Shown: piece after piece, positions 14,703 to 31,800 of the stretch
Numbering within the stretch: the first letter of the stretch is position 1
Layout: each line of letters begins with the position of its first letter
From: an uncultured virus (IMG/VR IMGVR_UViG_3300008448_000047)
Lineage: Duplodnaviria; Heunggongvirae; Uroviricota; Caudoviricetes
Length of the DNA stretch: 64,000 nt
IMG/VR virus record: IMGVR_UViG_3300008448_000047
Reading direction: 5' to 3' (one strand)
The notes under the pieces: generated by a model
What the model was told of the DNA's origin: nothing
Seen by the model: the letters and a program-made list of their open reading frames with translations, nothing else
Databases searched by the model: none
Made by a program: the position numbers and the translations under genes

Positions 14703-15061
14703 TCTTCCTCCACCGTCGGCTTGTACATACTAGCGAATTTCTTGACGCGCCAATCATCGCGGAAGATGAGCTCGAGTGACGTGTACTGCTTGCCGAGGTC
14801 ATTCCCACCCATGTGGAACTCGGACTGAGAGCATCCCAGTACTGCCTTGATGGCTTTCTGTGCTCCGTGGCCGGCGATGCCGCGTGTGATGGCCTGGCGG
14901 CGGCTGTGGGTCAATTCAGGGCGGCGGCCGCGACCCGACCAAAATGTATCCACCCAAACAGTAAAGACCTCGAGTATGGAACTTTCTGTCACGGAAGAAA
15001 AGTATGGGAGATTTTCTACCTGAACTTTTTTACCCGACAATTTTTTGTGCGCCAAAATCAA
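14699..15061 (-). CDS. Protein resembling the C-terminal domain of phage replication initiators
   Basis: LTHSRRQAI...SEFHMGGN...YTSLELIFR; adjacent to loader gene; start uncertain. Confidence 0.55.
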   Translation of the reverse strand: MILAHKKLSGKKVQVENLPYFSSVTESSILEVFTVWVDTFWSGRGRRPELTHSRRQAITRGIAGHGAQKAIKAVLGCSQSEFHMGGNDLGKQYTSLELIFRDDWRVKKFASMYKPTVEEE

Positions 15062-15300
15062 TTACTCCTTCTACCCGACAATTAGTACTACAACATATTG
15101 GTAGGGAGTTGTAGTACTAATTAAGACTTATCTTACTCATAAGACTTAATCTATTTACTATTTACGGTTCTAACACAATCAGCGCTAGCTGATGTCTTAG
15201 AATCCAATTACTGTTCAGTACTGTTACCCACCCCCCTATAGTCCCCCCTCCCACGAGGCAGAAGAGTACTAAAAATGAATTAGGGCAGCACAAATAACGT
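15031..15300. other. AT-rich repeat-containing region, candidate replication origin
   Basis: TACCCGACAATT x2, AGTACT x4, TAAGACTTA x2, next to initiator/loader-like genes. Confidence 0.35.
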
Positions 15301-15471
15301 TGCTGGATTTTGGGCAACGTTTACTGAAGGTTTTAGGCCGGCCTTCGTATGTAGGGGGTGAGCGTAGCAGGCTCGAGTGGGTCACGCAACCATGATGTGG
15401 GAATTTCTTTGAGCTCTTCCGCCACCGTCAAATGCTAGCCAGCGCTGCGGGCTCGACAGCCCCGACATCCC

Positions 15472-15485
15472 CGAACATGTGTTCG
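15472..15485. promoter_or_regulatory. LexA (SOS) box
   Basis: Perfect CGAAC-ATGT-GTTCG upstream of the replication module. Confidence 0.6.
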
Positions 15486-15584
15486 TAATGGTGTACTCTA
15501 TTCCCCGGGAGGTCCCCTTCCCTCCTAGAGGGTTAAGAGTCCTAGTTGCAGCTTGTGGGTAGGTTGGCTGCACTAGGGCTCCCC

Positions 15585-16070
15585 TCACACCAGTTCTTTT
15601 TCGAACCAGCCGTGATTGAGCATTATGCCGATGGCTGCGTAGCCGGCGACATCGAGGATGTTGTCTTTAATCGATTCGTTCTGGGGCTCTGCAGCTTTTA
15701 GGATGAGGTGCTCGAGGCGTGCAATCTTGTCATGGCAGCGCACGATGACGCCGTAGGTCCCAAAGCGGAGAATGTTGTTGTGGCCGTAATCGCGCTGCTT
15801 ACGGATTAGCGTGTCAATTAGCTCCTGCGGTGTAAAGCTATTTCCAGTGTTCGTTGCATAGCGGTAAGCCGTGCGGCCGACGCCGGCCCAATGAAGAGAA
15901 GTACTCTCACTTTCCTTGTTACGCGAGAAGTCTTCTTCGAGGTAGGTAAACGCGAGACGAAGCTCGGCGATAACTATCGCGGGAGGCTGCTTCGGGAAGT
16001 CCATTATCTTCTCGACAGCCGCTGCGGCCGCGTCATTCCAGGTTTCGATGGGGTTAGTTAATGTGTTCAT
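15585..16070 (-). CDS. DUF1599-like nucleotide-modification-associated (all-alpha NTP pyrophosphatase-like) protein
   Basis: RKQRDYG...VRCHDKIARL...ESIKDNILDVAGYA. Confidence 0.7.
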   Translation of the reverse strand: MNTLTNPIETWNDAAAAAVEKIMDFPKQPPAIVIAELRLAFTYLEEDFSRNKESESTSLHWAGVGRTAYRYATNTGNSFTPQELIDTLIRKQRDYGHNNILRFGTYGVIVRCHDKIARLEHLILKAAEPQNESIKDNILDVAGYAAIGIMLNHGWFEKELV

Positions 16071-16110
16071 GCGGTAATACTAGTTCTTCCGCCACCGTAA
16101 AAGAGTTGTA

Positions 16111-16296
16111 CTAGGAACCTTTTTTGGTGGGTTTCTTCTCCAGGATGGCACCAGGGCCGCCAGATAGGAGCTCCATGGTCTGGGGCTTTCCAGTGTGAGA
16201 CTTCTTGTTTGCGCAAACAGGTGGAGTCGAGACAGAGACCATCAACTCCACCTTGTTGCTGCACTTTGGGCATTTCCATGCGAACCTCTTAGACAT
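16111..16296 (-). CDS. Small zinc-ribbon protein
   Basis: MSKRFAWKCPKC...PPVC...H. Confidence 0.55.
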   Translation of the reverse strand: MSKRFAWKCPKCSNKVELMVSVSTPPVCANKKSHTGKPQTMELLSGGPGAILEKKPTKKGS

Positions 16297-16375
16297 GGTC
16301 CGGGATGGTAGCACCATTTTTGTCAACTGCAGGTGAATAGCGCTACGACGGCCAAAGCGAATATCACTGTGGCCA

Positions 16376-16687
16376 TTATTGTTCGCCTGCCAGGCTGCGG
16401 ATGTACTGCAGAATTTCATGACGTTTCTCGTCTGGCTGGTCTGCGTAGACCTTGAACATGATGCTGACGAAGCTCTTAAGTACCTCGAGCATGCAATCGT
16501 TCAGCAGCTGGCCAGCTTCATCGATGAGGTCTTCAATCTCGTCGACGGTCCCAGCAGCGATAATTTCACGACGCCCAGGGTGGTCGAGGTGCACGCAGCG
16601 GATTTGGGGGCTCAGTGGGAACCCCTTCTTTTCCAGGGAGTCCCAGATATAGAGGTCTTCATATGGGTTGGGCATGTCATCAAACAT
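16376..16687 (-). CDS. Hypothetical protein
   Basis: AAAGGAA RBS. Confidence 0.6.
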   Translation of the reverse strand: MFDDMPNPYEDLYIWDSLEKKGFPLSPQIRCVHLDHPGRREIIAAGTVDEIEDLIDEAGQLLNDCMLEVLKSFVSIMFKVYADQPDEKRHEILQYIRSLAGEQ

Positions 16688-16704
16688 GTTGTTCCTTTCT
16701 GTAG

Positions 16705-16944
16705 TTACCAGTGCCGCCAGCTGCGGCCCCAGCGGGGAGATGTGTTACGTAGGTAGCGCGCAAAGCGCGGGAGAATCTTTTCCACAACCTCGGGGATAAA
16801 GATGTGGACAAAGATGTCGAGGCAGCGAATAAAACGACAAGGGCTGCCGAGTTTAAATCGACTTACTGGGGGGAGTTCGAAACGCGGTAGTTCACGGAGG
16901 GTTTCCTTGAGAGTCAATTCACGTGTCAGCATTTGGTGAGTCAT
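16705..16944 (-). CDS. Hypothetical protein
   Basis: ORF in minus-strand gene run. Confidence 0.45.
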   Translation of the reverse strand: MTHQMLTRELTLKETLRELPRFELPPVSRFKLGSPCRFIRCLDIFVHIFIPEVVEKILPRFARYLRNTSPRWGRSWRHW

Positions 16945-16957
16945 AGTAGCTACTTAG

Positions 16958-17185
16958 TTATGTAATTACAACCTCTTCCACCACCGTAAAAGAGTTGTCA
17001 GCGCTTTTTGGCAGTGGGAGTGTCACTGGCTCCAGGGCCAGAAGGAAACGTTCGACGCTCGAGAGGATTGTCGAGACGTCTTCGGGTGAGAAAGGTTTGT
17101 CAGTCACTGCCAAGGCGGCCGCATGCGAGATGCGTTCTTGTAGTAGCGCTGCAGCGATGACTATCTCGTCGTAGATGTCATCCAT
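16958..17185 (-). CDS. Hypothetical protein
   Basis: Overlaps upstream gene; motif A lies in its 3' end. Confidence 0.55.
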   Translation of the reverse strand: MDDIYDEIVIAAALLQERISHAAALAVTDKPFSPEDVSTILSSVERFLLALEPVTLPLPKSADNSFTVVEEVVIT

Positions 17186-17420
17186 TTTCAGGCTCGTCTT
17201 TCATCACTCCATACTCCAGAACAGCGTCGAAGACTTCGCCACGCAAACTGTTGAAGGAAACATCTTCCAACTCTGAAACAATCATCGCCCACTTTTCTGC
17301 AGGCAACCACATTTCGTCGTCGGGGTCAAAGTCGAACGACTCTTTGTCAAACAAGAGCACAAAGACGTCGTCGTCGTCATGCATCTCATTGATGGCCGCT
17401 TTCAGTTCAGAAATCTTCAC
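17178..17420 (-). CDS. Hypothetical acidic protein
   Basis: GTGA coupling. Confidence 0.6.
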   Translation of the reverse strand: MKISELKAAINEMHDDDDVFVLLFDKESFDFDPDDEMWLPAEKWAMIVSELEDVSFNSLRGEVFDAVLEYGVMKDEPENG

Positions 17421-17731
17421 TTGTACTCATTTCCATATTCGCCTAGGTCACCTGTGCGATTGATTGCTGGGTAAACAGGTCCGTAGCCATTTTTGTCGAG
17501 CAGGTCGCTGACCATTTCTAGACACTCTCCGTCGGTCGCTAGTTCTCCGTCGATGCGCACAATGCGAATAATTTCCTTGATGATTTCCTCAGGCGTCATG
17601 AGCAACTCTTTCTCTAGTTGTTTTTCTACTTCTATGCACGCGTTACACATTTCTTCTTCACACGTGCAGTTGTCAGGTATCGGGAATTCCCAAACATCAG
17701 CGGGGATGGGAATGTTGTGTACCGCTCTCAT
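17417..17731 (-). CDS. Hypothetical protein
   Basis: ATGA coupling. Confidence 0.6.
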   Translation of the reverse strand: MRAVHNIPIPADVWEFPIPDNCTCEEEMCNACIEVEKQLEKELLMTPEEIIKEIIRIVRIDGELATDGECLEMVSDLLDKNGYGPVYPAINRTGDLGEYGNEYK

Positions 17732-17958
17732 TGTTCTTGCAACACTTCATCTAGCGCTTCATAGTCGAGCGATTCGTCTAACCAGGCTACGCCGTCTGGG
17801 GTTCCTGCTGACGTGTACACAAGATAGTTAGTTGCGAAATCACGGTACGTCACTTCCTTATCAAGGCTTATGACCATGTTGTACAAAAATTCGTCATTCA
17901 TTAGCCACAAGGCCACGTTCCACGTTGCGTGGTTTTTCCATCCGTTGTAATCGCTCAT
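17728..17958 (-). CDS. Conserved phage hypothetical protein
   Basis: MSDYNGWKNHATWNVALWLMNDE motif, common in phage early regions. Confidence 0.7.
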   Translation of the reverse strand: MSDYNGWKNHATWNVALWLMNDEFLYNMVISLDKEVTYRDFATNYLVYTSAGTPDGVAWLDESLDYEALDEVLQEQ

Positions 17959-18586: not shown

Positions 18587-18589
18587 TGT

Positions 18590-18742: not shown

Positions 18743-18846
18743 GTGTTCCCCTTTGATAGTTAGTAGTTAGTAGTTGTGGGGTGCACGCTACACCCCACTT
18801 AGCCATTTTTGCAAGTGGCTACTGCTAGATTATTTTGTGACTTTGG

Positions 18847-19056: not shown

Positions 19057-19250
19057 TGCTTCTCCTTTTCTGTAGTGGTGACCTAAAAGTTATCCAGTAC
19101 ACCTGACAAACACAACACGAAAGGCCAAACTTTTCTCGAGGGCCACGTGTCATCCACCACCGTCTGGTTGTAGCCCCGTTACCGGCAGCGGCCCCGCGGG
19201 GCTTCTGGGGTTCCGCCGCAGCCGGCAGCCGGTCGAGTAGTGTCAAGAGT

Positions 19251-19631
19251 ATGAACCGATGGGACAAAAACATTCAAGCACTATCCGCCTATGTTGCCGA
19301 GAACGGCACAGCACTCGTACCGACCTCGTACAAATGTTTAGTGGACGGCGAGACGGTATCGCTGGGGTCGTGGGTGACCTATGTGCGTATCAAGTACCGC
19401 GCTGGAACGCTTCAGATGGAACGCATGGCTCAGATGGAAAACTTCCCTGGTTGGACATGGGGTCCTTGTAAGCCTGGACCGATGGGTAACCCTGACCGTG
19501 ACAAGCAGATGGTCGCTATGCGTCAGGCTGGCAAGTCACTCCAAAGCATCGGAGACGAATACGGCTTGTCAAGGCAACGAGTTCATCAAATCCTAAATCG
19601 CATGGGACATCGGGAAACCGCTAGTGCCTAG
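19251..19631 (+). CDS. Helicase-associated (HA) domain plus sigma-region-4-like HTH
   Basis: LGSWV..VR..Y..G.L..ER......GWTW; SLQSIGDEYGLSRQRVHQI. Confidence 0.75.
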   Translation: MNRWDKNIQALSAYVAENGTALVPTSYKCLVDGETVSLGSWVTYVRIKYRAGTLQMERMAQMENFPGWTWGPCKPGPMGNPDRDKQMVAMRQAGKSLQSIGDEYGLSRQRVHQILNRMGHRETASA

Positions 19632-19848: not shown

Positions 19849-19883
19849 GCCTCTTCCGCCACCGTCAAAGAGTTGTCCTCGTC

Positions 19884-20275: not shown

Positions 20276-21811
20276 CTAGCGATAGGTGAGTTCGTGACCT
20301 GTCACGCTCTCGTACACACCTTTCATGTGTGACGGAACGATGGACTTCACTTTCTCGCCCTTTGACATGGCTTTCAGCATTGTGACTGCCTGCTCAGGTG
20401 TCTCACAGGTGTAGATACCGTGACGCTTGATGAGTGCCACGCACTCCATCACTAAGTCCTCACCCCAACTGTCACCCTTGCCTGTGACCCCACCATCGGT
20501 GACCCAAATGACAGGGGAAGTATTGCGCTGACGCTTTCCGATAGCCCAACGCAAGGCAGGTGCGTCCACTCCGTTGCCACCGTTCGGTGACGGAAGTTCT
20601 TTCACGCACTTGCCCTTGTTGGCGACCACATACAGGTTCGGGCGACTACTGCGCCCACCTGAATACTGCGCCACGAGTGCTGACGGTGCGCTCAACACCA
20701 TCTCCATCACTTCATCGTGTTCCAGCGACATAGAACCACTCGTGTCAATGAGTACCACGCCACCTGCGCCCTTCACAGTACGGTCAAAGATACGGCGTTC
20801 AGGGTCGGTGAGTAGGCGAGACATACGGCGTGGGTTACGCCCTGTCTGCGATGAGACACGCTTGCGTCCGATAGCACCCATCACATTACGCTCTAACGCT
20901 GGTGTGGAGATACGCAGTTCTTCCCACAAGGTCGCACGACCTTTCTTCGGGATAGTTCCACGACCCCAACGGTCATGTGTGAAGTTCTCGCTTGCCTTCT
21001 CTGTCGGAGACTTGCCATCTTCATCTTTGACTTCGCCTGACGGTGCGCCTTCGCCCTCTTTGCCTTCGCCCTCTTTTTGTGGCTGTGGCTTTCCTGTGGG
21101 GTTGTCACACAATGCGCCGACTTGTTCCTCTACCCACTTTGCGTAGTTCTCCACATAGCCAAATCCTGACAGGTGGAGACGAGAGTGAGTGGCGTGGAGT
21201 GATGGAGTAGAACGCTGGTTGTCCATTACAGAGCGAAAGTAGTTCTCGCCTGTGTGGGAAATCGTCTCCAACAGTTTCACCCACGATGGCTCGTGCTGTG
21301 CGACACCACGCAAGTATTGTTCGTATCCTGCCGTGCCACGAAACGCAATAGCGTCCATCACGCACGAGAGAAAGTCGCCCACCTCTGCTGTGCGCTTTCC
21401 TGCGAGATACTCGCTTCCGTCTGAAAGGTGAGTTGTTGGCTCAAATCCTGCGTAAGAACACAGGACATTGACACGCAGTTCCTCGCACACTACGAGCGTA
21501 GGTGCTTTGGCGTAGCCACGAGCCACCCACTTCTCAAACTGCTTCGCCGTAGGTGACACCTTTGCGTGTGTCATCTCGTGCGCTCGTATCACGCGAGAAT
21601 GTTCGGTGTCGTACATCGGCACACGCATCTCACGCAAGGTGACTTCCGTTGCTGGTTCACCACGCTTGGGTTGGACATTGACAATGTTCCAACGCTTCTC
21701 TGCGTCTTTCGCTGTGTTGTCTCCACGAGACAACATCTCAGGCTCAGGGTACTGTGGCGTAGTACCCTGAGCGATGTTCGCCGTAATCGGCGTTCCGTTT
21801 GACTTGCTCAC
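20276..21811 (-). CDS. vWA (MIDAS) protein with N-terminal HExxH metallopeptidase-like motif
   Basis: AHEMTH; LIDTSGSMS; WVTDG. Confidence 0.85.
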   Translation of the reverse strand: MSKSNGTPITANIAQGTTPQYPEPEMLSRGDNTAKDAEKRWNIVNVQPKRGEPATEVTLREMRVPMYDTEHSRVIRAHEMTHAKVSPTAKQFEKWVARGYAKAPTLVVCEELRVNVLCSYAGFEPTTHLSDGSEYLAGKRTAEVGDFLSCVMDAIAFRGTAGYEQYLRGVAQHEPSWVKLLETISHTGENYFRSVMDNQRSTPSLHATHSRLHLSGFGYVENYAKWVEEQVGALCDNPTGKPQPQKEGEGKEGEGAPSGEVKDEDGKSPTEKASENFTHDRWGRGTIPKKGRATLWEELRISTPALERNVMGAIGRKRVSSQTGRNPRRMSRLLTDPERRIFDRTVKGAGGVVLIDTSGSMSLEHDEVMEMVLSAPSALVAQYSGGRSSRPNLYVVANKGKCVKELPSPNGGNGVDAPALRWAIGKRQRNTSPVIWVTDGGVTGKGDSWGEDLVMECVALIKRHGIYTCETPEQAVTMLKAMSKGEKVKSIVPSHMKGVYESVTGHELTYR

Positions 21812-21817
21812 AATGCC

Positions 21818-22558
21818 CTACTTCTGTGGGGTCATTGTGTTGATAGCGATAGCGTCCACCACGCTCTTAGCACGGTCACGGAAAACCATTTGCGCCGCCT
21901 TTTTTGTTCCGAGTGCTGTACGCAGTTGGTCAAAGGCGTAGAACGCACGGAGAGAGATACGGCGTTCGCCTGCGTCTGCCATCTGACGGGCGTAGTCACG
22001 CAAGTCCTCGCTCAGACGGGCGAGTGCTGACGGGTGTGGCTCGTTGATACGGATACAGACGGGGAAACGGTCTTTGAGTGCCATTGGTAGGTCGCTCATC
22101 TGCTCAATGTTCGTGGTCATCACCACGCTGAAACCTGCGTTGGGGCGCAATACCTGACGGGTCTGTGGGTGTTCCCACTTTGCGCTTTCAGGGCTGTCTG
22201 TCATCGCCAGCAAGGTTGCGAACACATCGCCACCTGCCTTGTCAATCTCGTCAATAACGAGACGACCACCTGTGTTGCCATCGCCCTTCCACGCACGGAT
22301 AGCAGAGCCTTCCAGCCACGACCACGAGCCGTGGTCATTTGGTTGCCAGCAACCTGTTACATCTGCGTTGGTCATGTCATCGGTACAGATGAGACGGTGT
22401 GCGCCTGCTTCGGTGTTGCCGTATGTCAAGCCTGCGAATGTCTTGCCTGTTCCTGGCACTCCAAACAGAATGAGACGGTCTATGCCTGCTTCCAGCGCAT
22501 CATTGACTTCTTGCCAGCAGGCAGGAAGTGTGGTTGTTGTGTCTTGGACACTTGTCAT
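21818..22558 (-). CDS. MoxR/CbbQ-type AAA+ ATPase
   Basis: Walker A GVPGTGKT, Walker B VIDEID, MTTN, ALKDRF, ISLR. Confidence 0.88.
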   Translation of the reverse strand: MTSVQDTTTTLPACWQEVNDALEAGIDRLILFGVPGTGKTFAGLTYGNTEAGAHRLICTDDMTNADVTGCWQPNDHGSWSWLEGSAIRAWKGDGNTGGRLVIDEIDKAGGDVFATLLAMTDSPESAKWEHPQTRQVLRPNAGFSVVMTTNIEQMSDLPMALKDRFPVCIRINEPHPSALARLSEDLRDYARQMADAGERRISLRAFYAFDQLRTALGTKKAAQMVFRDRAKSVVDAIAINTMTPQK

Positions 22559-22709
22559 TGGTTTCCCCTTTCGTGGGAGTTTGTTGTGGGTGTGAAGTGT
22601 AGCCACATTGTTAGTGGCACACAACCTTGTTAGCCATCATTTCTAATGGCTCTCTATGTGGGGTGGGCGAGCATCTGCCGTGTCTCCCACCCCACACGAG
22701 ACTTTGTGA

Positions 22710-23123
22710 CTAGGCGACCTGCGCTGTGTCGGTGGACTTGGACTTTGCCTTCGCATCAGGCGAGATGGCTGTGGTACGCACCTGTGAGTAGGTGGTGACC
22801 TTTGTGATGGTGTCTGCGACTTCTTGTGAGACGATGCCCACCTGAACTGCGCTCTCCAACATTTCACCGTCCACTACGGGCTTGGTTACTTTCTTGTAGG
22901 TGGCAGGCTTCACGAGCATCGCCAACTTGTCTGCGTCATAGGACTTACGCTGTCCGTCCACGATGGCGACTTTGATGCCGTCCACAACGCTTGTGTTGAT
23001 GCCTGCGATGGCGAGTGCTTCACGCAACGCCTGCTCTGCTTCCTTCTTTTGTGCTTCTGCCTGTGCGCTGGCTTCTTTTGCCAACAGGTACAGGCGTGTT
23101 GCTTGCTCTACTGAGTGTGTCAC
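22710..23123 (-). CDS. Hypothetical coiled-coil protein (Gam/Gp157-like at best)
   Basis: AAGGA RBS; TTGACA-17-TAAGGT promoter upstream. Confidence 0.6.
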   Translation of the reverse strand: MTHSVEQATRLYLLAKEASAQAEAQKKEAEQALREALAIAGINTSVVDGIKVAIVDGQRKSYDADKLAMLVKPATYKKVTKPVVDGEMLESAVQVGIVSQEVADTITKVTTYSQVRTTAISPDAKAKSKSTDTAQVA

Positions 23124-23166
23124 GGCATTTCCTTCTTTCTTGGTAGGTGTCAAAGTGACAATGTGT

Positions 23167-23221
23167 ACCTTACAGGTGTCAATGGTAGTTGTCAATAGGT
23201 TTCTGTGTGTCGTTTGTCACA
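23167..23221 (-). promoter_or_regulatory. Sigma-A-type promoter with upstream CRP-like box
   Basis: TGTGACAAACGACACA (23221-23206); TTGACA-17 bp-TAAGGT. Confidence 0.7.
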
Positions 23222-23568
23222 CGCCTACCGACCTTGCCATCGGGCTGTTTGGTACAGGGTGAAAGATACAGGGTGTAAGGCACAGGCACAACACTCACAC
23301 AACATCTTTCTTCTGTGTCTGTTGTCACAGGGTCGGGCAGGCGCACAGGTACGCACACGCACGGGCAGGCGCACACACGCACGGGCGCAGGGGGCTTCTT
23401 CCACCACCGTCAGCCTTGTGAGCCCCGTTGGGCGAAGACGGCTCGCGGGGCTGTCACCCCAGATGTCGCCCCAGAAGTCGCATCTGGTTCAGCCGAAGTT
23501 TGGACTTGCTCAAAGTTTGGGGTTAGTCCGACTGTGATGTGTCCTATGTGATGTGTCCGACTAATCCC

Positions 23569-23613
23569 TGTGACAAACGACACATTGACATTGTGCCTTA
23601 CACTCTGTAACTT
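23569..23613 (+). promoter_or_regulatory. CRP-like box abutting sigma-A promoter
   Basis: TGTGACAAACGACACA-TTGACA-17 bp-TAACTT. Confidence 0.75.
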
Positions 23614-23647
23614 GTAATCACCTACTAGCCCACGAAAGGGGACAGAG

Positions 23648-24103
23648 ATGACCACATCATCACCTGTGCGTATGGCAGAACTTGCCCAGCGCACACTCAC
23701 TATGGAAGGGGGCGAAGGCTTCACTATGGAACAGGCGATACTGTTCGCATACTGCGCTGACGGTTTCCGTCTTCTCGCAACAGCAGAAGACATTTACGAA
23801 GCGTTGGAGAGCCTTCCACACATTCAGTCGCTCAAAGAAGACGACCAAGGCATTGGCATCATCACAACAGGTTGGGCTGCGCCACTCGGTGACAACGGAG
23901 AAGTAGAAGGCGCACCAAGCGCACACCCTGAGCGCAAGCGTGTACGCCTTTGCTCGTGCGTTGAGCGTGGTGGAAAAATGGGGTCGGCTCTCGCCTTTGA
24001 GACTGACCCTGACGACCTCGTGACAGACGAAGGCAACGGAACAGGCTCACTCGCTAACGCCTTGCTCTCTGCTCTCAACGCACTTCTCGCCAAGAACAAC
24101 TAA
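23648..24103 (+). CDS. Hypothetical cassette protein
   Basis: Own promoter, AAGGGG RBS and terminator; ends AKNN. Confidence 0.75.
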   Translation: MTTSSPVRMAELAQRTLTMEGGEGFTMEQAILFAYCADGFRLLATAEDIYEALESLPHIQSLKEDDQGIGIITTGWAAPLGDNGEVEGAPSAHPERKRVRLCSCVERGGKMGSALAFETDPDDLVTDEGNGTGSLANALLSALNALLAKNN

Positions 24104-24126
24104 ACCACAACCCACTTCCAACAGTT

Positions 24127-24160
24127 AGCCCTCACTTGCCTCGGCAGGTGGGGGCTTTCT
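24127..24160 (+). terminator. Intrinsic terminator
   Basis: GCCCTCACTTGC/GCAGGTGGGGGC hairpin plus T run. Confidence 0.65.
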
Positions 24161-24364
24161 GCTGTCCCCGAACTTCCCCACGAAGGGTCTTCCACCACCG
24201 TCAAAGTAGTGAAGACGGGGGTCGGTAGCCCCGGCGGGTTTTATTTAGGCCAGATAGTTCTGATGGCCGCTGCGCTGATGGCCGTGATGGTAGACAAAGC
24301 AAAACCCCCTGCTTCGCCAGCGTGAGACGAAACAGGGGGTTGAGCGTGACAGGGGTAGGAAAGA

Positions 24365-24646
24365 CTATCCCTTGTCGGTCTGTTGAGAACGGTAGAAGTC
24401 CATAGCGGGGACAGACATCTGCCCTTTATCTTCCAGTTCACGGGCGAACTTGACAAGGATAAGACCCATGCGCTCGTCATCTACCAAGTGATAGTGGAAG
24501 AAACGGTGCTTGGTGATGTCGTGTAGAACAGCCATGACAGCGTGTTCCCCCGTTGAGGCAAGCGTGTAGTAATGCTCGTAAAGCGTTTCCACTATTTCTT
24601 CATCTGTCCAGTATCGCCAACTGGCGAGGTCTACTCGTATGTCCAT
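24365..24646 (-). CDS. Hypothetical protein
   Basis: AAGGAG RBS; followed by a terminator hairpin. Confidence 0.65.
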   Translation of the reverse strand: MDIRVDLASWRYWTDEEIVETLYEHYYTLASTGEHAVMAVLHDITKHRFFHYHLVDDERMGLILVKFARELEDKGQMSVPAMDFYRSQQTDKG

Positions 24647-24849
24647 GTATCTTCTCCTTGTATTAGACCGAGTGATGAGCCGTTGTCCCACTTGACATGA
24701 ACAGTACCCATGTCGTCAATGTAGTCCACAACGCCTTCGTCACCACTTTGTAGTTTCGTGTATGGGTCTGAGCAACGGATAAGGCGCACCCGCTTTCCAG
24801 CAAGTGCGCCCTTCACCCATTCGTTTGCGAGTTGGTCAATGCGTTTCAT
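24631..24849 (-). CDS. DUF4314-like protein
   Basis: RVRL...DPY..L..G.EG.V..IDD.GT.HV.WDNGSSLGLI.GED. Confidence 0.75.
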   Translation of the reverse strand: MKRIDQLANEWVKGALAGKRVRLIRCSDPYTKLQSGDEGVVDYIDDMGTVHVKWDNGSSLGLIQGEDTWTYE

Positions 24850-25442
24850 TAGCAAATCTGAAAGCCACCGCAGTTTGCTAAGAAAGTAGCGAACTCACGG
24901 ACATTCTTCTTGTCAAACGGATAGTTCTTCGCAAAGTGTTGCTGACCGCCAGTTCCCCCACAGGCGTTACATTCTTTGGTTTCTTCCAGCCAGCCTTCGG
25001 GCTTCTCAACAGGTGTGTAGGTCGGCAAACAACCATTACCTTCGGTGGCTATCTCGTTGGCAAAGGCTTCCGCAATGCTGTATTCCACAGAAGGCGTGTA
25101 GTCGCCATTGTTGTCGGGGTTGGTGTACCAAGTGCGCTTACCAGTCGCCTGACAATGAACACAGGGGCGAATAGGCAAAGACGCAAGCCACTCGTTGCGT
25201 GTCTGCTCGTAGTTGTCCAGCGTTCCGTCACGCAGGCTCTTGCGTAGAACTTTGGCAAGTTCCTTCGCATCTTCTCCGTCAAGCCCGTCTCCGTCATTGG
25301 AGTATCCGTTCTCAACCATGCTCGTAAGTTCAGGTGCGACAAACTCGCAGAACTCCCACAGGGGACGCCACCACCACACATTGTTGCGGAAGTATTCGCC
25401 CTTTTCATTCTTTGGGTCTTGCCCAAATACGTCCATTCCCAT
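24849..25442 (-). CDS. Hypothetical protein with DnaJ-like zinc finger
   Basis: YFRNNVWWWRPLW; CxxCxxTG x2; CGGFQIC end. Confidence 0.75.
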   Translation of the reverse strand: MGMDVFGQDPKNEKGEYFRNNVWWWRPLWEFCEFVAPELTSMVENGYSNDGDGLDGEDAKELAKVLRKSLRDGTLDNYEQTRNEWLASLPIRPCVHCQATGKRTWYTNPDNNGDYTPSVEYSIAEAFANEIATEGNGCLPTYTPVEKPEGWLEETKECNACGGTGGQQHFAKNYPFDKKNVREFATFLANCGGFQIC

Positions 25443-25576
25443 TCCGTTCCCCTTATCTATTAGGTGTTGAGTGGGCGGGTGTGCCTTCCCTACGACATAC
25501 CCCCTTCCCTTCTAGTCCCCCTACGGGCAGGTCGCTTGCGAACTCGTAGGCTAGTTGGGTCGGTTGCCCACATAGA

Positions 25577-25633
25577 AGGGTACAGGTGTCAAGCACAGTT
25601 AGCAAGTGTCATTTGTCACAGAACAGGTGTTCG
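25577..25633 (-). promoter_or_regulatory. Promoter with CRP-like box and adjoining LexA-like box
   Basis: TGTGACAAATGACACT, TTGCTA-17-TACCCT; AGAAC-AGGT-GTTCG at 25620-25633. Confidence 0.65.
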
Positions 25634-25976
25634 GTGAGACACATTTGGTGCGACTGTCTCGTGAGACTAACTGGGGGAAAGTGTCTCAGACTGGGAGAAG
25701 GGTCTTCCACCACCGTCAAAGTCCTGTGGGAGCCCCGCGGGACAAAAATCCCGTCCGGGACTTCCGCCCCATCTGTGTTGCCATCGGCGACATCGGCGAC
25801 ATCGGGTTGCGTTGCTTGCCGACAGCCACTAAGGTATGCCCATGTCATTAGTCTCTATTGTTGTAGTCATCGCACTCATCGCATTGTTCGCAAGTGGCTA
25901 ATGTCACACAATAACTATTTGACAAGTGGCTACTAACTTTGTAGTCTTAGATTCTCAACTCACAAAAGGGGGAATC

Positions 25977-26333
25977 ATGACTGATTCTGTCATTGAGTGG
26001 GAAGAGGTGAGCAACACTTCAGACGAAGTGGAGTGGGACTTTGCGACAGACTTGTTCGCTGAGGTTGCCAACACGCTCATTGCCCATAATGAGGAACTTC
26101 ACGAAGGCGACACTTGGTGGCGCATTGAGGGATTCCCATTGTGGAGTGGTGGGCTTGACGGTATTTTCCACGCCGATACGCCGATGAAGTTGTTGGAAAG
26201 TATTACCGTTCGTTCGGAATGGTCATTGCGCTACACGCTTGACCCCGAAACAATGGTGCTTACTTGTCACCTCTCTCACCACGATGCAAGCGGAACTTTT
26301 ACGGTGAAGGCAATGCCTAATCCAGACCGCTAA
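25977..26333 (+). CDS. Hypothetical cassette protein
   Basis: TTGACA-17-TAGTCT promoter, AAGGGGG RBS, terminator. Confidence 0.7.
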   Translation: MTDSVIEWEEVSNTSDEVEWDFATDLFAEVANTLIAHNEELHEGDTWWRIEGFPLWSGGLDGIFHADTPMKLLESITVRSEWSLRYTLDPETMVLTCHLSHHDASGTFTVKAMPNPDR

Positions 26334-26355
26334 CAACTGAACAACACGGCGAACT

Positions 26356-26384
26356 GCCCGTCTCCGAAAGGGGGCGGGCTTTTT
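26356..26384 (+). terminator. Intrinsic terminator
   Basis: GCCCGTCTCC-GAAA-GGGGGCGGGC-TTTT. Confidence 0.75.
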
Positions 26385-26548
26385 GCTTGCCCAACGACTG
26401 CCCGTGCGCCGTCTCCCGCCACCGTCGGAAGGTGCGAGCCCCGGACGGTCGCATCGCAGCGCGGGGCTATCGGGCGCATCTGCGCCGTCGCCACTCAGTT
26501 TCGTCGCCACCTGCCAACTCGCCACCTGTCTGTCACCCCTGTCTCGCC

Positions 26549-26592
26549 TGTGACAAACGACACTTGACAAACTGTGTTATCGCCTGTATCTT
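26549..26592 (+). promoter_or_regulatory. CRP-like box abutting sigma-A promoter
   Basis: TGTGACAAACGACAC-TTGACA-17 bp-TATCTT. Confidence 0.75.
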
Positions 26593-26635
26593 CTACCTTG
26601 TAATACACACCAACTACCCATAGGGGGGTACACAA

Positions 26636-27211
26636 ATGGAAGAAGAACAGACACCATCTGAACTATTGGCTTCTGTAATCGCTCGCGCGATGGAAGTCAA
26701 GTACGAGATGTGCGTGGACAACAATGGAATGTGCGATACGCCACCTGTACTGCTCGGTGAACTACCGACAGGCGAAGGCTTCATCGCACCCGACTACAAC
26801 GATGGACACCCAACCGACACCTTGCCGTTGATGCTGTCAGCACTCGCTGAAACGATGATGGCACAGTTCTCATCGGTTCAATGGAAGTGGCTTGCGTATG
26901 TCGTAGAAGGCTACGCAAAGCCAACACACGAAGGGGTGGAGAGCCTGCCCGAAGATTGGAGCCGTGGAATGTACGAAGAAGAGTACAAGACGAACCCAAC
27001 AAGCGATGTGCGTGAAGGGCTTATCGTGGGTCTGTATCCGTGGGAAGGACAAGCCATCGGAACAACCGTGTTCTATCGCTACAACGACAAGGGCTTGCCT
27101 GTCTATGACGAGCCTGAGATGTTGGAAGGCGAGATGGAAGGGACTGTCGCAGACATCTTCAAGGCGTTCACGATGGCGTGTAAGACAATCACCAACGCCA
27201 AGAACAACTAG
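26636..27211 (+). CDS. Hypothetical cassette protein (possible paralog of 46853..47482)
   Basis: Own promoter, RBS, terminator; ends AKNN. Confidence 0.75.
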   Translation: MEEEQTPSELLASVIARAMEVKYEMCVDNNGMCDTPPVLLGELPTGEGFIAPDYNDGHPTDTLPLMLSALAETMMAQFSSVQWKWLAYVVEGYAKPTHEGVESLPEDWSRGMYEEEYKTNPTSDVREGLIVGLYPWEGQAIGTTVFYRYNDKGLPVYDEPEMLEGEMEGTVADIFKAFTMACKTITNAKNN

Positions 27212-27229
27212 ACCGTACCCCCTACGGAA

Positions 27230-27271
27230 GGGGGGTCGCCTGCCAAGTACGGTGGGCGACCCCCCTTTTTT
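27230..27271 (+). terminator. Intrinsic terminator
   Basis: GGGGGGTCGCC...GGCGACCCCCC-TTTTTT. Confidence 0.75.
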
Positions 27272-27352
27272 CGTGTACCCAACCAGCCCTCTTCCACCAC
27301 CGTCAAAGCAAACCCGTTGCGCTTAGCAGCCCCGCCCGGTATTATTTATGAG

Positions 27353-27574
27353 ATGTCGTACGTTCGCTATGTGTGTGAGTTCTGTAATCACGAAGTCCAG
27401 CCAGGGCAAAGTGGAACAATGAAGTTGGTGTTGGCGTGGGTGCGTTCAGACAACAACACAGGAATAAAGGGTGTGAAGAACCAGCACAAGTACGCTCATT
27501 CCATCTGTGTGGAAACAGAGACTAAGCGTGGTGGTAAGCGAGAAGGCTCAAACGGCGAGCAGACGCTGTTTTAG
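27353..27574 (+). CDS. Small zinc-binding protein
   Basis: CEFC...HSIC. Confidence 0.6.
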   Translation: MSYVRYVCEFCNHEVQPGQSGTMKLVLAWVRSDNNTGIKGVKNQHKYAHSICVETETKRGGKREGSNGEQTLF

Positions 27575-27621
27575 AGTGCGAACAGCAACGCAATCGCAAC
27601 GAGAACGATGATGGCAGTCAC
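27571..27621 (-). CDS. Hydrophobic micropeptide MTAIIVLVAIALLFAL
   Basis: GTGA overlap with stop of 27618..28007; four similar peptides nearby. Confidence 0.65.
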   Translation of the reverse strand: MTAIIVLVAIALLFAL

Positions 27622-28007
27622 TTTGTATCCTTAGATACGAGCACCCAGCCACCTTTGCCGTCTCCGATGTAGGTCTCTTTGCCTTTCCAACCCCAAGCCC
27701 AGCGACAGCATGAAGGGTCAAGGGTACAGTCATCATTACTGTCAAAGTCAGCGTGATGAATGAAGTTCGGGTGACAGCCACCACGAAGTTTCTCTCCGAG
27801 CAACGGAAAAGCATCTAGAAGTTTGACAACGCAGTCGTGACACATACTGATAAAGCGACTTTCATCGCTACCAAGTAGGACGCCCACATTGTCGTCAAAG
27901 CCACCGTAGTAGCCGAAGTGGTCAATAGGCAAAGACCAGCCCCCGTCAGGAAGGCTGTCTTGTTGTGTGTTCGGTTGCTCTACACCACAGGTATCGCAGG
28001 TAATCAT
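27618..28007 (-). CDS. Cys-rich hypothetical protein
   Basis: CDTC...GYYGGFDD...CHDC. Confidence 0.7.
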   Translation of the reverse strand: MITCDTCGVEQPNTQQDSLPDGGWSLPIDHFGYYGGFDDNVGVLLGSDESRFISMCHDCVVKLLDAFPLLGEKLRGGCHPNFIHHADFDSNDDCTLDPSCCRWAWGWKGKETYIGDGKGGWVLVSKDTK

Positions 28008-28015
28008 TGTGTCTT

Positions 28016-28219
28016 TCAGGGTTGGTAGATGTTGTACCCGTATGGGTCGTACAGAGTTGTCGTGGTCTCACACGGGTAGTGAAAATACTCGCAGTCAGGG
28101 ACGCCTTGTTTCTCATCTCCGATAGATGCGATAAGAAATAGAGTTGCGCCGATGAGAGTTGTCCAAAAGACAAACCTCACGAACGAACGCACCTTGTAAT
28201 AGATAGGTGGGTGGCTCAT
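28016..28219 (-). CDS. Small membrane protein with CEYFHYPC motif
   Basis: Single TM; paralog at 31801. Confidence 0.7.
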   Translation of the reverse strand: MSHPPIYYKVRSFVRFVFWTTLIGATLFLIASIGDEKQGVPDCEYFHYPCETTTTLYDPYGYNIYQP

Positions 28220-28425
28220 TCCTTCTCCCAACTACGGAAGTATTCAGGGTCGCCGACCCAAAATGCGCCTTCACCATTTGCCTTGTTCAGCCATTCGTCA
28301 AGGTTGGCATGAAGGAAGGCACGGTACCCCTCGGTCACCTCATCTGTGTTGTGCTTACAGATGTCCGACTGAACATTGTCGCCATCGGCATTGGTGTAGA
28401 TGATTTCTCCACAGAACTCTTTCAT
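28216..28425 (-). CDS. Hypothetical protein, probably leaderless
   Basis: ATG about 8 nt after the -10 TACCAT of a CRP-box promoter (28476-28433). Confidence 0.6.
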   Translation of the reverse strand: MKEFCGEIIYTNADGDNVQSDICKHNTDEVTEGYRAFLHANLDEWLNKANGEGAFWVGDPEYFRSWEKE

Positions 28426-28747
28426 GGGGTGAATGGTACAGGTGTCAAGCACACATGACAAGTGGCAGTTGTCACATCGTTGAGAGACAAGCAAGGGTGA
28501 GGTCGTCAAGACGGGGACACATCACGATGAGTTCTTCCACCACCGTCAAATCTCTCTGGGAGCCCCGATGGGCCGCTGCGGCCGTCCGGGACTTCCGCCC
28601 GCACTCGTGCGCCTGCGCCCGTGCGCCCGTGGGAGTTTCTCGGCTCGGCTGTCGGGGTTGGCTCGGACTGCCTCGCCTGTCGTGTGACAAACGCCACTTG
28701 TGTTAGTGCTGTGTTGCCTGTACCCTGTCAGGTGTAAGGGGGTGATT

Positions 28748-29110
28748 ATGAAAGCAACCAAAACAGACCTATCGCTTATGGCGTTACTCTGCTCAGACCG
28801 TGAAGGTCGCCCGTGCGATACGGGCGAAGTCTTAGCCCAAGTGGGCAAGATGAACTTTCTCGCTGTGTGCGGTGGCAAGTGGGCGAAGGTTTACGATTCA
28901 GGCATGGAGACTGTCGGCGTGTTGATGCTCTGCGGAGAATCTCGCGCGGTGGAAGTCGTGCTAGACCCGTGGGATACCTACACAGTGCGCCGTGTGCGCC
29001 TTGTGACCCGTGGAGAACTGAAGGGTTCAATCGTTGTGGAGTCGCAAGTTTCAGATGTCTATTGTGACAACTTGAGCGAAGTCGTCTATTCCGCTTCCTG
29101 CTGGAAGTAA
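28748..29110 (+). CDS. Hypothetical cassette protein
   Basis: CRP-like box at 28683, AAGGGGGTG RBS, terminator at about 29134-29166. Confidence 0.7.
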   Translation: MKATKTDLSLMALLCSDREGRPCDTGEVLAQVGKMNFLAVCGGKWAKVYDSGMETVGVLMLCGESRAVEVVLDPWDTYTVRRVRLVTRGELKGSIVVESQVSDVYCDNLSEVVYSASCWK

Positions 29111-29652
29111 CCAACAACCAAAACAACCGAGCAAGCCCGCCGTGTGCCCCCCGCACGGCGGGCTTTGCTTTGCCCGTGTGCCTGTGACCTTGACCCTTGC
29201 CCGTGGTGCGCCGTCTTCCGCCACCGTCAAAGTAAGTGAGATGGGGGCGAGAGCCCCGCTACCCCGCCCCCATCAAGCTCAGCTCAGCTCGACGGGCACG
29301 CTCAGCTCGAGGATTTTCTGCGTTTGTTTTTTGAAAAAGTCACGCTGCGTGGTCAAAGTTTGTCAAAACTCACGGAGAGTGGTCATTTTTGCTCGACTTT
29401 ACTTTTTAGTTCGAGAAAAAGCAAGCGAAGAGGGCCAACTTCCGGCTTTCTGGCCAGATGTCCCTGGCAGCCCCGATGCGGCCGCACGGCCGTCCGGGAC
29501 TTCTGCCCAGATGGCATCGCCAGACGGAGTTGCTCAGGTTGTCCATCGCTCTTGCTCGGTCAAGCCAAACTCGTGCTCGTCTCGGTGTGACACACGACAC
29601 GTTGCGACTGTGGCGTACAGGGTGTAGTTTGCTATTACCTAAGGAGGGGTTT

Positions 29653-29865
29653 ATGCCGGAGTTCTATCCGGAAGAAACCAAAGTCCAAAAGTCAAAACGA
29701 TTTGCTAAATCCCAAGGAAAGATAGTAAAAGCATTTAGTCACACAAAGTGTGGTAGGTGCGGAACCATCATTGGTGAAGGCGTTGAGTGTATTTGGCTCA
29801 ATGGAAAAGGTTGCTTCCACAAGCAAGGCGAATGTCCAAAGAAAGAAGAACAACAAGAAGAATGA
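29653..29865 (+). CDS. Small zinc-binding protein
   Basis: AAGGAGG RBS; CGRC...HxxxxC; CRP-box promoter at 29586. Confidence 0.7.
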   Translation: MPEFYPEETKVQKSKRFAKSQGKIVKAFSHTKCGRCGTIIGEGVECIWLNGKGCFHKQGECPKKEEQQEE

Positions 29866-29912
29866 CAGCGTTGATAGTTGCGCTGGCAGTTCTTTTATTG
29901 TTGGCAATCTGA
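29862..29912 (+). CDS. Hydrophobic micropeptide MTALIVALAVLLLLAI
   Basis: ATGA overlap; followed by terminator. Confidence 0.65.
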   Translation: MTALIVALAVLLLLAI

Positions 29913-30413
29913 ACGAAAGCCCGTCACAGAAATGTGGCGGGTTTTTTTGTGCCCGTCTTCCACCACCGTCAATGTAAATGAGACTGGGTCATCAGCCCCG
30001 CTGCTAACCCAGTTGATGTCCAGCATCTGAGTTCCTCACGACGTACGACATCGGATTATCAACTTTGTTTTCTTTTGTTTTTTGGAAAACGCTCACTCTG
30101 CGTGGTCGGAAAGTCAAAAAGTTCACGGAAAGTGGCAAAAACGAAGCGAAAGTCAAGTTCTTTGGAGTTTTTTGCTTGGCGCAAGCCCCCGTCGCTCACC
30201 CGTCGTACGTGCGATGGGTTTTCCCCGCGGTAGCCCCGTTTACCCAGTGCGGGGAAACGGGACTGTTCCGTGGTTTCTGGCCCTGGACGGCCCGGCGGCC
30301 CGGAAGTCGGACTGGCGCAGCGCAACTCGGACTGACCTGAGGCTCGGCTGTGACAAACGACACTTTGACATTTGCGCTTGACACCTGTAGCCTGTAGGCA
30401 AGAAGGGGGGGAA

Positions 30414-30581
30414 ATGAAGTTTTATGCCAACATCACGCTCAACATAGATGAGTTTGATGCAGATAACGAAGAAAAAGCAAAAGAAATAATAGATTCGTAC
30501 ATCACAAGCCTTGCAAACACTGAAGATGAAAGTCTTTCGTGGCAAGAAATGAACTACGAAGTGAAAGAAGCCACTGAATGA
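30414..30581 (+). CDS. Small acidic hypothetical protein
   Basis: CRP-box promoter at 30349 (TTGACA-17-TAGCCT); RBS. Confidence 0.65.
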   Translation: MKFYANITLNIDEFDADNEEKAKEIIDSYITSLANTEDESLSWQEMNYEVKEATE

Positions 30582-30634
30582 GCATCGCCATTACGGCGTT
30601 TACTCTTTTTTTGTTGTTCTCCGCCGTGAACTAA
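30578..30634 (+). CDS. Hydrophobic micropeptide MSIAITAFTLFLLFSAVN
   Basis: ATGA overlap; followed by terminator. Confidence 0.6.
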   Translation: MSIAITAFTLFLLFSAVN

Positions 30635-30845
30635 GAACCGCCCGTCCCTGAAAGGGGGCGGGTTTTTCTTTTCCCCGTCTTCCGCCACCGTCGTAAAAGT
30701 GCCATCACGAAGGTCGTGAGCCCCGCTGATTTACCAGATGCTCGTGTCTGGTTCGCCAGACAAACCGTGAACTTCGGCGACTCCAACTCGTGCCTGTGAC
30801 AAACAACACTTGACACTCCTTGTGCTGTTCAGTACACTCGCCCGT

Positions 30846-31130
30846 ATGCAAATAATCACCACTATCAACGAACCGATACCTTTTATCGGAACGGTTGATG
30901 AAATGTTAGCCAACTACAACACTCACCTATGGTGGCAAGACCCCGAATCGTGGGAATCGGTATGTGACCGCTGCGCCTGTAAAGGTTGGCACAAGGCTGC
31001 CAAGTATCCGTGTGGGACAGAGCCACCTCGCCGTGATGTCGTTGTGTGGGTTGATGCAGAAGGTAATCAGCATCGCAACCACCCGACCCTTGCTGCTTTG
31101 GGTATCGCTAGCGATGAGATTGTAGAGTGA
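30846..31130 (+). CDS. Hypothetical Cys/His protein, probably leaderless
   Basis: CRP-box promoter at 30795 (TTGACA-17-TACACT); ATG 7 nt after -10. Confidence 0.65.
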   Translation: MQIITTINEPIPFIGTVDEMLANYNTHLWWQDPESWESVCDRCACKGWHKAAKYPCGTEPPRRDVVVWVDAEGNQHRNHPTLAALGIASDEIVE

Positions 31131-31177
31131 CCGCTGTCATTTTGACGGTTGCTGTTTTCTTGCTGCTTGCTGTCTAG
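31127..31177 (+). CDS. Hydrophobic micropeptide MTAVILTVAVFLLLAV
   Basis: GTGA overlap; followed by terminator. Confidence 0.65.
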   Translation: MTAVILTVAVFLLLAV

Positions 31178-31800
31178 TAGATAATCCACTTGCCGCCCTG
31201 CTTAGTCGTGGGGCGGCTTTGTGCTGCCCGTAATCGCCTCGCATCGCCGTCTCTCTGCCCGTCTCGGCGACTTGCGGCTTGATGGTGTCCCTAAATACCC
31301 TGCTTCCAACCTGAGCCTTTCTAGATGTCTAGCGTTGCTCAAAGTTGGAACATCTCAGCCCGTCTTCCGCCACCGTCAGTTTATTGCGGGTAGTCGCGGG
31401 GCTCTCGAGCGCCAGCCGCACGGGGAGTTGCACGGGCGGCAGACCTCAGATGGCATCGGCTTTCGGGCAGTTTTTCGGTTTTCTTATTTTTTTAGAAACT
31501 GAAAAACCCGAAATCCTTTATTTTGGCGACTTCACGAACTTGACTTTTGAGTTTTTCGTGTTATGTTGGCAAACTTTGCCACACCCCCTTCTTCCGCCCG
31601 CGTTAGCCCCGTAAAGCTCGAAGAGCTGCACGGGACTGTCAGTCTTCTGGACGACGGAGTTGTTCTTCGGCTTCGGCTTGTTGCTGGCTCGGCTTGGAAC
31701 TTCGGAAGGCTTCGCAACTTTCTTTTCGGAAAGACTTGACATCGTGCCTTGTTGCTTGTAAGGTACAGGGTGGGTGGAGTGCCTAGCGAAAGGAAATGCT

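Follow-up and report, generated by a model that had tools for sequence, protein, structure and literature searches.

What keeps a short DNA word on one and the same strand, at the junctions of genes that point either way, within a single block of a phage genome? The question is raised by a stretch of 64,000 nucleotides (the window, at its full length) from an uncultured virus of the Caudoviricetes, IMG/VR record IMGVR_UViG_3300008448_000047, in which the word TCTTCCRCCACCGT, referred to below as the motif, recurs along an array of gene cassettes. The answer put forward here is that the motif is a family-wide sequence under selection at which related phages exchange cassettes; its proposed role, held tentatively and with somewhat less than even confidence, is that of a polar operator or stoperator-like docking site for a protein of the array that combines an HA domain with a helix-turn-helix (HTH), the binding being deduced, and the same site doubling as the cassette crossover point.

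When at most one mismatch is allowed, 16 copies of the motif are found between 14703 and 31363, 13 of them exact and three with one mismatch (14703, 19150 and 26412). All 16 are on the + strand and the 64-kb window contains no reverse copy. Chance expectation was derived from dinucleotide-preserving shuffles, which gave an expected count of 0.03, and 16 copies were reached in none of 100 shuffles. The number of copies, their division into exact and imperfect ones and their constant strand whatever the direction of the genes, all claimed in an earlier note on this DNA, are thus borne out. Allowing two mismatches adds three matches, at 31590 (+), 12957 (+, within a gene) and 5298 (-), the last two being at chance level (0.79 expected). 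The motif core is TCC-R-CCACCGT, which reads ACGGTGGYGGAA(GA) on the other strand, and the reverse complement of the motif is (TTG)ACGGTGGYGGAAGA; the word is asymmetric rather than palindromic, dyad symmetry being absent. The individual copies are given below, together with a second box, AGCCCCG (inverted, CGGGGCT), whose position is counted from the motif start.

14703..14721, + strand: motif copy 1, TCTTCCTCCACCGT, one mismatch; within the 3' end of the - strand gene 14699-15061, both neighbours on the - strand
15415..15433, + strand: motif copy 2, exact; AGCCCCG at +43; both neighbours on the - strand
16085..16103, + strand: motif copy 3, exact, then AAAGAGTTGT; in a 40-bp gap between the - strand genes 15585-16070 and 16111-16419
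16974..16992, + strand: motif copy 4, exact, then AAAGAGTTGT; both neighbours on the - strand
19150..19168, + strand: motif copy 5, TCATCC variant; AGCCCCG at +22, in a hairpin with CGGGGCT
19852..19870, + strand: motif copy 6, exact, then AAAGAGTTGT; between the convergent genes 19624-19848 (+) and 19884-20138 (-)
23397..23415, + strand: motif copy 7, exact; AGCCCCG at +24 with a CGGGGCT partner; divergent promoters and genes
24188..24206, + strand: motif copy 8, exact; AGCCCCG at +39; chimeric junction
25703..25721, + strand: motif copy 9, exact; AGCCCCG at +28; divergent context
26412..26430, + strand: motif copy 10, TCTCCC variant; AGCCCCG at +25; 33 nt past the + strand terminator 26356-26379, both neighbours on the + strand
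27290..27308, + strand: motif copy 11, exact; AGCCCCG at +38; chimeric junction
28533..28551, + strand: motif copy 12, exact; AGCCCCG at +28; between the - strand promoter 28462-28476 and the + strand promoter 28683-28697
29214..29232, + strand: motif copy 13, exact; AGCCCCG at +38; both neighbours on the + strand
29956..29974, + strand: motif copy 14, exact; past a + strand terminator; AGCCCCG at +38, in the loop of a conserved hairpin
30678..30696, + strand: motif copy 15, exact; AGCCCCG at +41; 15 nt past the + strand terminator 30640-30663
31363..31381, + strand: motif copy 16, exact; inverted box CGGGGCT at +34
31590..31611, + strand: degenerate copy, TCTTCCGCCCGCGT, two mismatches; AGCCCCG immediately after it

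The reverse complement of copy 1, GGAGGAAGA-ATG, adjoins the start of the - strand gene 14232-14702, and copy 5 sits between the divergent genes 18847-19056 (-) and 19251-19631 (+). With gene neighbours in the window taken from open reading frames (ORFs) conserved in relatives, the left and right neighbours of the 16 sites are both on the - strand at four, - and + at four, + and - at two, and both on the + strand at six. All four combinations are therefore present, in agreement with the suggestion of a polar signal that acts at the DNA level, independently of gene direction. Readings of the motif as an attC site, a CRISPR element, a DnaA box, an ECF promoter or an anti-Shine-Dalgarno sequence were dropped, the features that each of them requires being missing from the sequence.

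The window comes from a large uncultured phage and includes genes for the tail, lysis, replication and the capsid as well as 10 tRNA genes; no nucleotide match to it was found among 50,697 phage records. Proteins of Gordonia, Brevibacterium and Arthrobacter phages are the closest counterparts of its capsid protein (48% identity) and its helicase (31-36%), and the public runs that contain its DNA are labelled as lake/freshwater and fungus metagenomes. The exact 17-mer of the motif occurs in ~200 IMG/VR stretches. In the nearest record (G001, a 75-kb fragment rated 50% complete; records and loci of relatives are cited by such handles), 17 forward copies and no reverse copy are present. In 21 related records, the motif is clustered in a block of 10-20 kb, nearly always on a single strand, and the few opposite-strand matches are one-mismatch words far from the block. 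Moreover, in each of the 17 array regions retrieved from related IMG/VR phages, 7-18 forward copies and no reverse one are found at up to two mismatches. The motif is thus clustered and strand-fixed both in the window and in its relatives, and not spread over both strands of the genome at a background rate, the outcome against which the earlier note had proposed to check it.

Since the flanks are unconserved across 159 distinct motif copies, the element is sharply bounded. Its 5' half varies by clade (TCTTCC, TCAT(C/A)C, CTTTCC, TTTAC) and (C)RCCACCGT is constant. A scan of ~186,000 species genomes returned 120 loci, as single scattered matches without arrays, none of them listed with two copies. 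The motif is a trait of the whole phage family, and no published description of it was found in the limited collection of literature searched.

The motif sequence itself is under purifying selection, as follows from 34 orthologous junction comparisons in which both flanks are homologous and in which copies lacking a -10 hexamer were included. Mismatches affect 8 of 340 positions in the 10-base core, the R position accounting for most of them, and 673 of 3650 aligned positions (18%) in the flanks of +/-60 nt.

Cassette order differs between the window and the related record G003, and two copies of the motif mark the rearrangement. At 27290, homology to cassette D of G003 (copy 13837) stops at motif base +18, and homology to its cassette E (copy 16029) starts at base 1 of the same motif; at 24188, the left flank is that of G003 copy 16029 and the right flank that of copy 13837. 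The sites 24188 and 27290 are reciprocal chimeras of the G003 junctions 16029 and 13837. When 14 genome pairs were compared by BLAST, 340 internal segment ends were obtained, of which 39 were placed within -15..+35 of a motif start (10 expected), with segment starts piling up at motif 0 and segment ends at +15..+23. Pairwise comparisons of copies with at least one homologous flank (n=109) gave 34 with both flanks, 5 chimeric and 70 with one flank only. Because the homology between related phages starts or stops there, the motif is a crossover point for cassette swapping; breakpoints of cassette gain, loss and shuffling, which had been suggested as something to look for at the motif, do fall on it.

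The cassettes exchanged carry transcription signals of their own. Terminator-like hairpins are located 15-52 nt upstream of the copies at 24188, 26412, 29214 and 30678, hairpins with T-runs are found ahead of those at 27290 and 29956, and the array contains a family of predicted promoters:

23207..30838, both strands: host-type promoter family, TGTGACAAACGACAC (a 15-base upstream word), then TTGACA-N17-TAnnnT

These promoters are at 23569, 26549, 28683, 29586, 30349 and 30795 on the + strand and at 23207, 23315, 25606 and 28462 on the - strand; the promoter word has 11 matches window-wide versus 2.1 expected, 10 of them in the array. The predicted promoters follow gene direction, would drive the cassettes and form a family separate from the motif. 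Given that the cassettes have their own promoters and terminators, the motif lies between transcription units, past a terminator and ahead of the next promoter.

Breakpoints at the motif also agree with a reading that needs no dedicated reader, namely that the motif is a passive recombination linker of the PeSL type, a relic of the upstream half of an early promoter that is kept via general homologous recombination. It would likewise fit with the minority of copies that are real promoter halves, with the restriction of the motif to the hyperplastic early region, and with the behaviour of the PeSLs of T4-type phages, which is reported to be similar (PMC2839356, PMC4122927). As described there, a PeSL is a ~100-bp composite of a working promoter and a stem-loop, oriented with the gene (PMC2839356, PMC4122927). 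The two systems have in common that conserved intergenic elements stand beside small orphan early genes of hyperplastic regions, that indels and replacements between relatives break at the element, and that the cassettes bring their own promoter and terminator. The motif, in contrast, is a sharply bounded word of 14-19 bases, lacks a -10 in the window, is separate from the cassette promoters and has a single orientation for genes of either direction. The linker reading is considered unlikely, since copies without a -10 remain intact at orthologous sites despite 18% flank divergence, and since the part that is invariant across clades measures ~10 bases, the 5' half being clade-specific, which is short for homology-driven exchange between clades. 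Furthermore, conservation ends abruptly at the motif edges, whereas PeSL similarity is graded over ~100 bp.

The second box had led to the description of the signal as bipartite. At 11 of the 16 copies AGCCCCG begins 22, 24, 25, 28, 28, 38, 38, 38, 39, 41 or 43 bp from the motif start, so that the two spacing classes reported before (22-28 and 38-43 bp) were found again, as was the single inverted box, and all 15 AGCCCCG of the 64-kb window are on the + strand, within 15458-32176. The three copies followed by AAAGAGTTGT (16085, 16974 and 19852) and the three occurrences of CCGTCCGGGACTTC(C/T)GCCC in the window were recovered too. The spacing classes are not a helical turn apart, as had been thought, their difference being ~14 bp. 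Pairing of AGCCCCG with the motif at +22..45 is observed in the window, G003 and G022, and partially in G020; in other relatives, neither strand is preferred by AGCCCCG or CGGGGCT, which do not adjoin the motif and look like arms of GC-rich hairpins. As the pairing is not seen in more distant relatives, the bipartite structure stands as a feature of the window and its clade and not of the family, and AGCCCCG was rejected as a universal second box. In the same region, the block at 15458-15500 after copy 2 (AGCCCCGRCATCCCCGAACATGTGTTCGTAATGGTGTA) is nearly identical in the window and G003 and contains the perfect palindrome GAACATGTTC; it may be a separate operator.

Read on the opposite strand, the motif resembles the upstream half of a promoter: TTG precedes the other-strand core in 8 of the 16 window copies, giving a -35-like TTGACG. 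A TANNNT at a spacer of 16-18 from TTGACG, i.e. 5-7 nt past the reverse-complement word, is present in 56 of 158 distinct copies of the family, against a background of ~2 per offset. The 56 are mostly orthologues of two sites, with 0-3 per genome, and such a TANNNT is found in none of 17 window copies and none of 18 G003 copies. At the promoter-type copies of relatives (G002 locus L221 at 2231 and similar ones), the start codon is ~8 nt past the -10, as in TTGACG-N17-TAGAAT-N8-ATG, which suggests that leaderless mRNAs may be made there. Leaderless mRNAs are common in Actinobacteria, and the pattern fits the actinophage-like proteins of these phages, not being proof of the host. As none of the window copies has a -10 at promoter spacing, the motif in this window is, judged by its sequence, not a promoter. 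The possibility of a known promoter class, which the earlier note had left for checking, is thus supported by the -35 and spacer of 56 copies in relatives and contradicted by all 16 copies of the window: the motif can be the upstream half of a putative promoter, yet a promoter role is apparently not what keeps it.

If the copies were nevertheless working - strand promoters, or part of an RNA element, they would supply sense RNA for - strand genes and antisense RNA for + strand cassettes. Apart from the 56 copies with TTGACG-N17-TANNNT, this would agree with the start codon of a - strand gene within 45 nt of 58 of 165 copies, its offset not being fixed, and with the position between two - strand genes as the commonest context in relatives (34 sites), where gene context was taken from greedy ORF calls with many spurious 'inside ORF' labels. 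Nevertheless, this reading is most improbable: besides the lack of a -10 in the window and G003 copies, TTGAC is intact in just 8 of the 16 window copies, there is no conserved position downstream of the motif on the - strand, distant clades have lost TTG and kept ACGGTGG, and an Rfam search with the motif region returned nothing relevant to an RNA element. The start-associated sequences of cluster K mycobacteriophages, conserved words of 13-17 bases at gene junctions in genomes of the actinophage type, invite a related comparison, as the motif of relatives is often 0-24 nt ahead of a - strand start codon. Unlike those sequences, the motif has a variable offset from the start codon, and at least seven window copies have no - strand gene to serve.

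A candidate for a protein that reads the word is encoded within the array:

19251..19631, + strand: candidate reader of 126 aa, with an N-terminal HA domain and a C-terminal HTH of the sigma-70 region 4 type

In Pfam, the 126-aa protein matches HA (E 8.5e-14) and Sigma70_r4 (E 3e-6), and its structural model consists of two helical domains joined by a low-confidence linker (residues 73-78), with a mean pLDDT of 84. All 12 orthologues compared, at 44-82% overall identity, have the recognition helix SRQRVHQI unchanged. Relatives of this HA-HTH protein are encoded in ~294 IMG/VR stretches; at the best 80 of the ~294 loci, RCCACCGTC occurs 340 times on the strand of the gene versus 22 times on the other, and 48 of these 80 loci have at least three forward copies. 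Wherever the retrieved DNA of a motif-bearing locus extends to the usual position of the gene, the gene is there; the short loci L243 and L249 did not yield it, and in L259, the motif, the HA-HTH gene and the gene for a Gam-like protein are all missing at the syntenic places. These data are compatible with a reading of the word by the HA-HTH protein.

As for the way in which such a docking site might work, the HA-HTH protein would bind the asymmetric word as a monomer and control early transcription in the fashion of an operator/stoperator network. The promoter-overlapping copies of relatives (0-3 per genome, at the -35 of a - strand promoter) would act as operators, and the remaining ones, including all 16 described here, as a polar roadblock or insulator, given that the window copies, lacking a -10, can act only as bound sites. 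The motif would at the same time mark the junctions of self-contained early-gene cassettes of promoter, gene and terminator. A cassette gained by two crossovers between direct repeats would keep the polarity of the site with the gene inserted either way; that exchange between directly repeated sites preserves polarity would explain why the motif is on the same strand regardless of gene direction.

The closest functional analogy is with the cluster A mycobacteriophages. Their repressor is described as a monomer with two DNA-binding domains whose asymmetric 13-mer target is found both in operators and in stoperators between genes; the stoperators follow the direction of transcription and lose their function when reversed (PMC9283540). 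The sites of the L5 gp71 / TipsytheTRex repressor (PMC9283540) and the motif are alike in being asymmetric, multicopy and mostly located in short intergenic gaps; a few cluster A copies overlap the -35 of a promoter, which is seen here in relatives only (0 of 17 in the window); and the monomeric two-domain reader of cluster A has a comparable two-domain candidate here, known from sequence and model. In contrast to cluster A, the motif is oriented with respect to the genome rather than to transcription nearby, its sites occupy a single early block, neither an integrase nor an immunity setting was found, and both the word and the HA plus sigma-4-type HTH protein are unrelated to gp71. The earlier proposal of stoperator-like operators can therefore be maintained as regards the functional analogy and the two-domain candidate in the array, and not as regards orientation, which does not follow transcription.

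Several points weigh against the docking-site reading. Classical stoperators follow local gene direction and the motif does not; the setting of an immunity repressor is lacking, since no integrase was found in 5 of 5 complete relatives, and the phages of this family appear lytic. Fold searching with the HTH gave local, non-significant matches (best E 0.38), among them sigma region 4, LuxR-type proteins, resolvase HTHs and the cluster A repressor HTH, and sequence comparison with solved structures gave weak ones (best E 0.005). The sole motif-less relative, L259, is a 13.5-kb piece, and the co-occurrence of gene and motif is not independent evidence, because shared synteny alone could yield it. 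As regards the crossover function, the pairwise comparisons (BLAST ends, 109 copy pairs, 34 junctions) share ancestry and do not represent independent events, and 301 of 340 BLAST segment ends are located away from the motif. Finally, a close relative represented by a public contig (run X15) shows gene replacements off the motif in a tight - strand operon, 17186-17432, 18430-18452 and 18568-18776 being replaced by 372, 182 and 51 other letters, respectively.

The candidate reader belongs to a four-gene module (161-aa, AAA_5 ATPase, 511-aa and 126-aa proteins) that is kept inside the array of every relative. Its other members in the window are the following:

20276..21811, - strand: 511-aa ATPase partner, a conserved viral hypothetical protein with a weak VWA hint
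21818..22624, - strand: AAA_5 ATPase (MoxR/CobS-like), conserved, mid-array
22710..23195, - strand: gene of a conserved 161-aa protein whose orthologues match a Mu Gam/Sipho_Gp157-like domain (4 of 10 members, best E 5.8e-5)

A fold search with the 161-aa protein was uninformative, and its assignment as a nuclease, based on a weak RecE-like PHROG match (E 5e-4), was not upheld, the orthologues being Mu Gam-like. The 511-aa protein gave no transposase or recombinase signal and no match in a phage protein search. A second sigma-70 region 4 protein, in a frame of ~220 aa outside the array, is found in the complete relatives (G002:69828, G006:155178, G014:86923, G007:69276 and G003:80263) and may be a phage sigma factor. 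No T7-type RNA polymerase (PF00940) was detected in 5 relatives, control genomes being equally silent, so that its absence is not established.

This module, conserved mid-array in all relatives and of unassigned function, could be thought to serve a dedicated site-specific exchange of cassettes, with the logic of integrons and unrelated parts, in which the motif would be the recombination site and a recombinase encoded in the array and so far unrecognised would excise and insert them; the candidates would be the HA-HTH protein and, alongside it, the AAA ATPase, its 511-aa partner and the Gam-like module. Direct repeats at every variable cassette junction, the precise and reciprocal nature of the junctions, and the weak matches of the HTH to those of resolvases and transposases are in its favour. 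It is nonetheless very unlikely: tyrosine (PF00589) and serine (PF00239) recombinases were each found in none of the 5 complete relatives, the 511-aa protein lacks a transposase signal, a catalytic domain was found in no array gene, and the motif has neither dyad symmetry nor attC-like structure. The earlier opinion that the motif is neither CRISPR-like nor attC-like is supported. Integron attC arrays resemble the present one in their one-way sites between single-gene cassettes with genes pointing either way, but the motif is no attC-type imperfect palindrome, neither IntI nor any other tyrosine or serine recombinase was found in the complete relatives, and the cassettes have promoters of their own. 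A bolder conjecture, regarded as highly doubtful, is that the array is a phage-borne system of cassette exchange that works without a recombinase, the one-way word being a true recombination site read by the HA-HTH protein and the Gam-like/ATPase/511-aa module performing strand exchange or the handling of DNA ends. If true, lake phages would use defined sites to exchange early genes that are ready for expression, in the manner of integrons but with unrelated parts.

A fixed strand whatever the gene direction is also what a polar signal of DNA metabolism would show, be it a programmed single-strand nick site, a Chi-like site that would restrain a host helicase-nuclease coming in from one end, or a polar replication signal. 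Programmed single-strand nick sites occur in T5, tf and phiKMV-type phages, and nick consensus sequences are said to exist in some phages. Furthermore, the G-rich strand of the motif contains GGTGGYGG, which resembles gamma-proteobacterial Chi words, and the array encodes the Mu Gam-like end-binding protein (4 of 10 orthologues match). This family of readings is quite unlikely: the sites are limited to the 10-20-kb hyperplastic block, being neither genome-wide nor at a defined end, and the conserved word of 14-19 bases is longer than any known Chi. Moreover, the scan of ~186,000 species genomes returned only single scattered matches.

Taken as a class, the element is filed as one of the operator/linker kind, yet as a member of none of the families of stoperators, PeSLs and integron sites, because it fails one feature of stoperators (orientation), one of PeSLs (promoter plus stem-loop) and both of those of integrons.

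Some further observations concern the phage family in general. GATC does not occur at all in the 64-kb window (250 expected), nor in seven of the nine regions of relatives that were inspected (L219, L221, L222, L229, L230, L231 and L250); the other two, L223 and L259, have 45 and 76 copies, respectively. Such a distribution points to strong selection, in most of the family, against a putative host nuclease specific for GATC. The ten tRNA genes of the window (Lys, Arg x2, Leu x2, Ile, Gln, Pro, Thr and Met) are at 43709-54564, all on the + strand, and accessory genes encode PAPS-reductase-like, metallophosphoesterase and HslV-like peptidase proteins (loci 35430-36581 on the - strand, and 11535-12710 and 12757-13401 on the + strand). 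Other strand-biased words occur in the early regions of the relatives L420 (G014), L402, L429 and L443, such as ACTTATCTAC (24 forward, 7 reverse), TAGTAGGTA (14/1), CGTGTCGTG (14/0) and the DnaA-box-like TGTGGATAA (6/0), some of them resembling - strand -10 regions (TAGATAAGT).

What these results mean for the biology of the family is, in the first place, that a large group of uncultured lake phages keeps one exact DNA word between early genes that change fast, and that the data join two ideas which are usually kept separate, a regulatory docking site and a swap point for accessory genes. The word is, moreover, a ready marker in metagenomes for cassette boundaries and for the variable gene pool. 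If the HA-HTH protein does read the word, this would be the first function for the widespread HA domain, and the system would offer a simple and testable model in which lytic phages insulate the genes with which they take over their hosts and exchange them as well.

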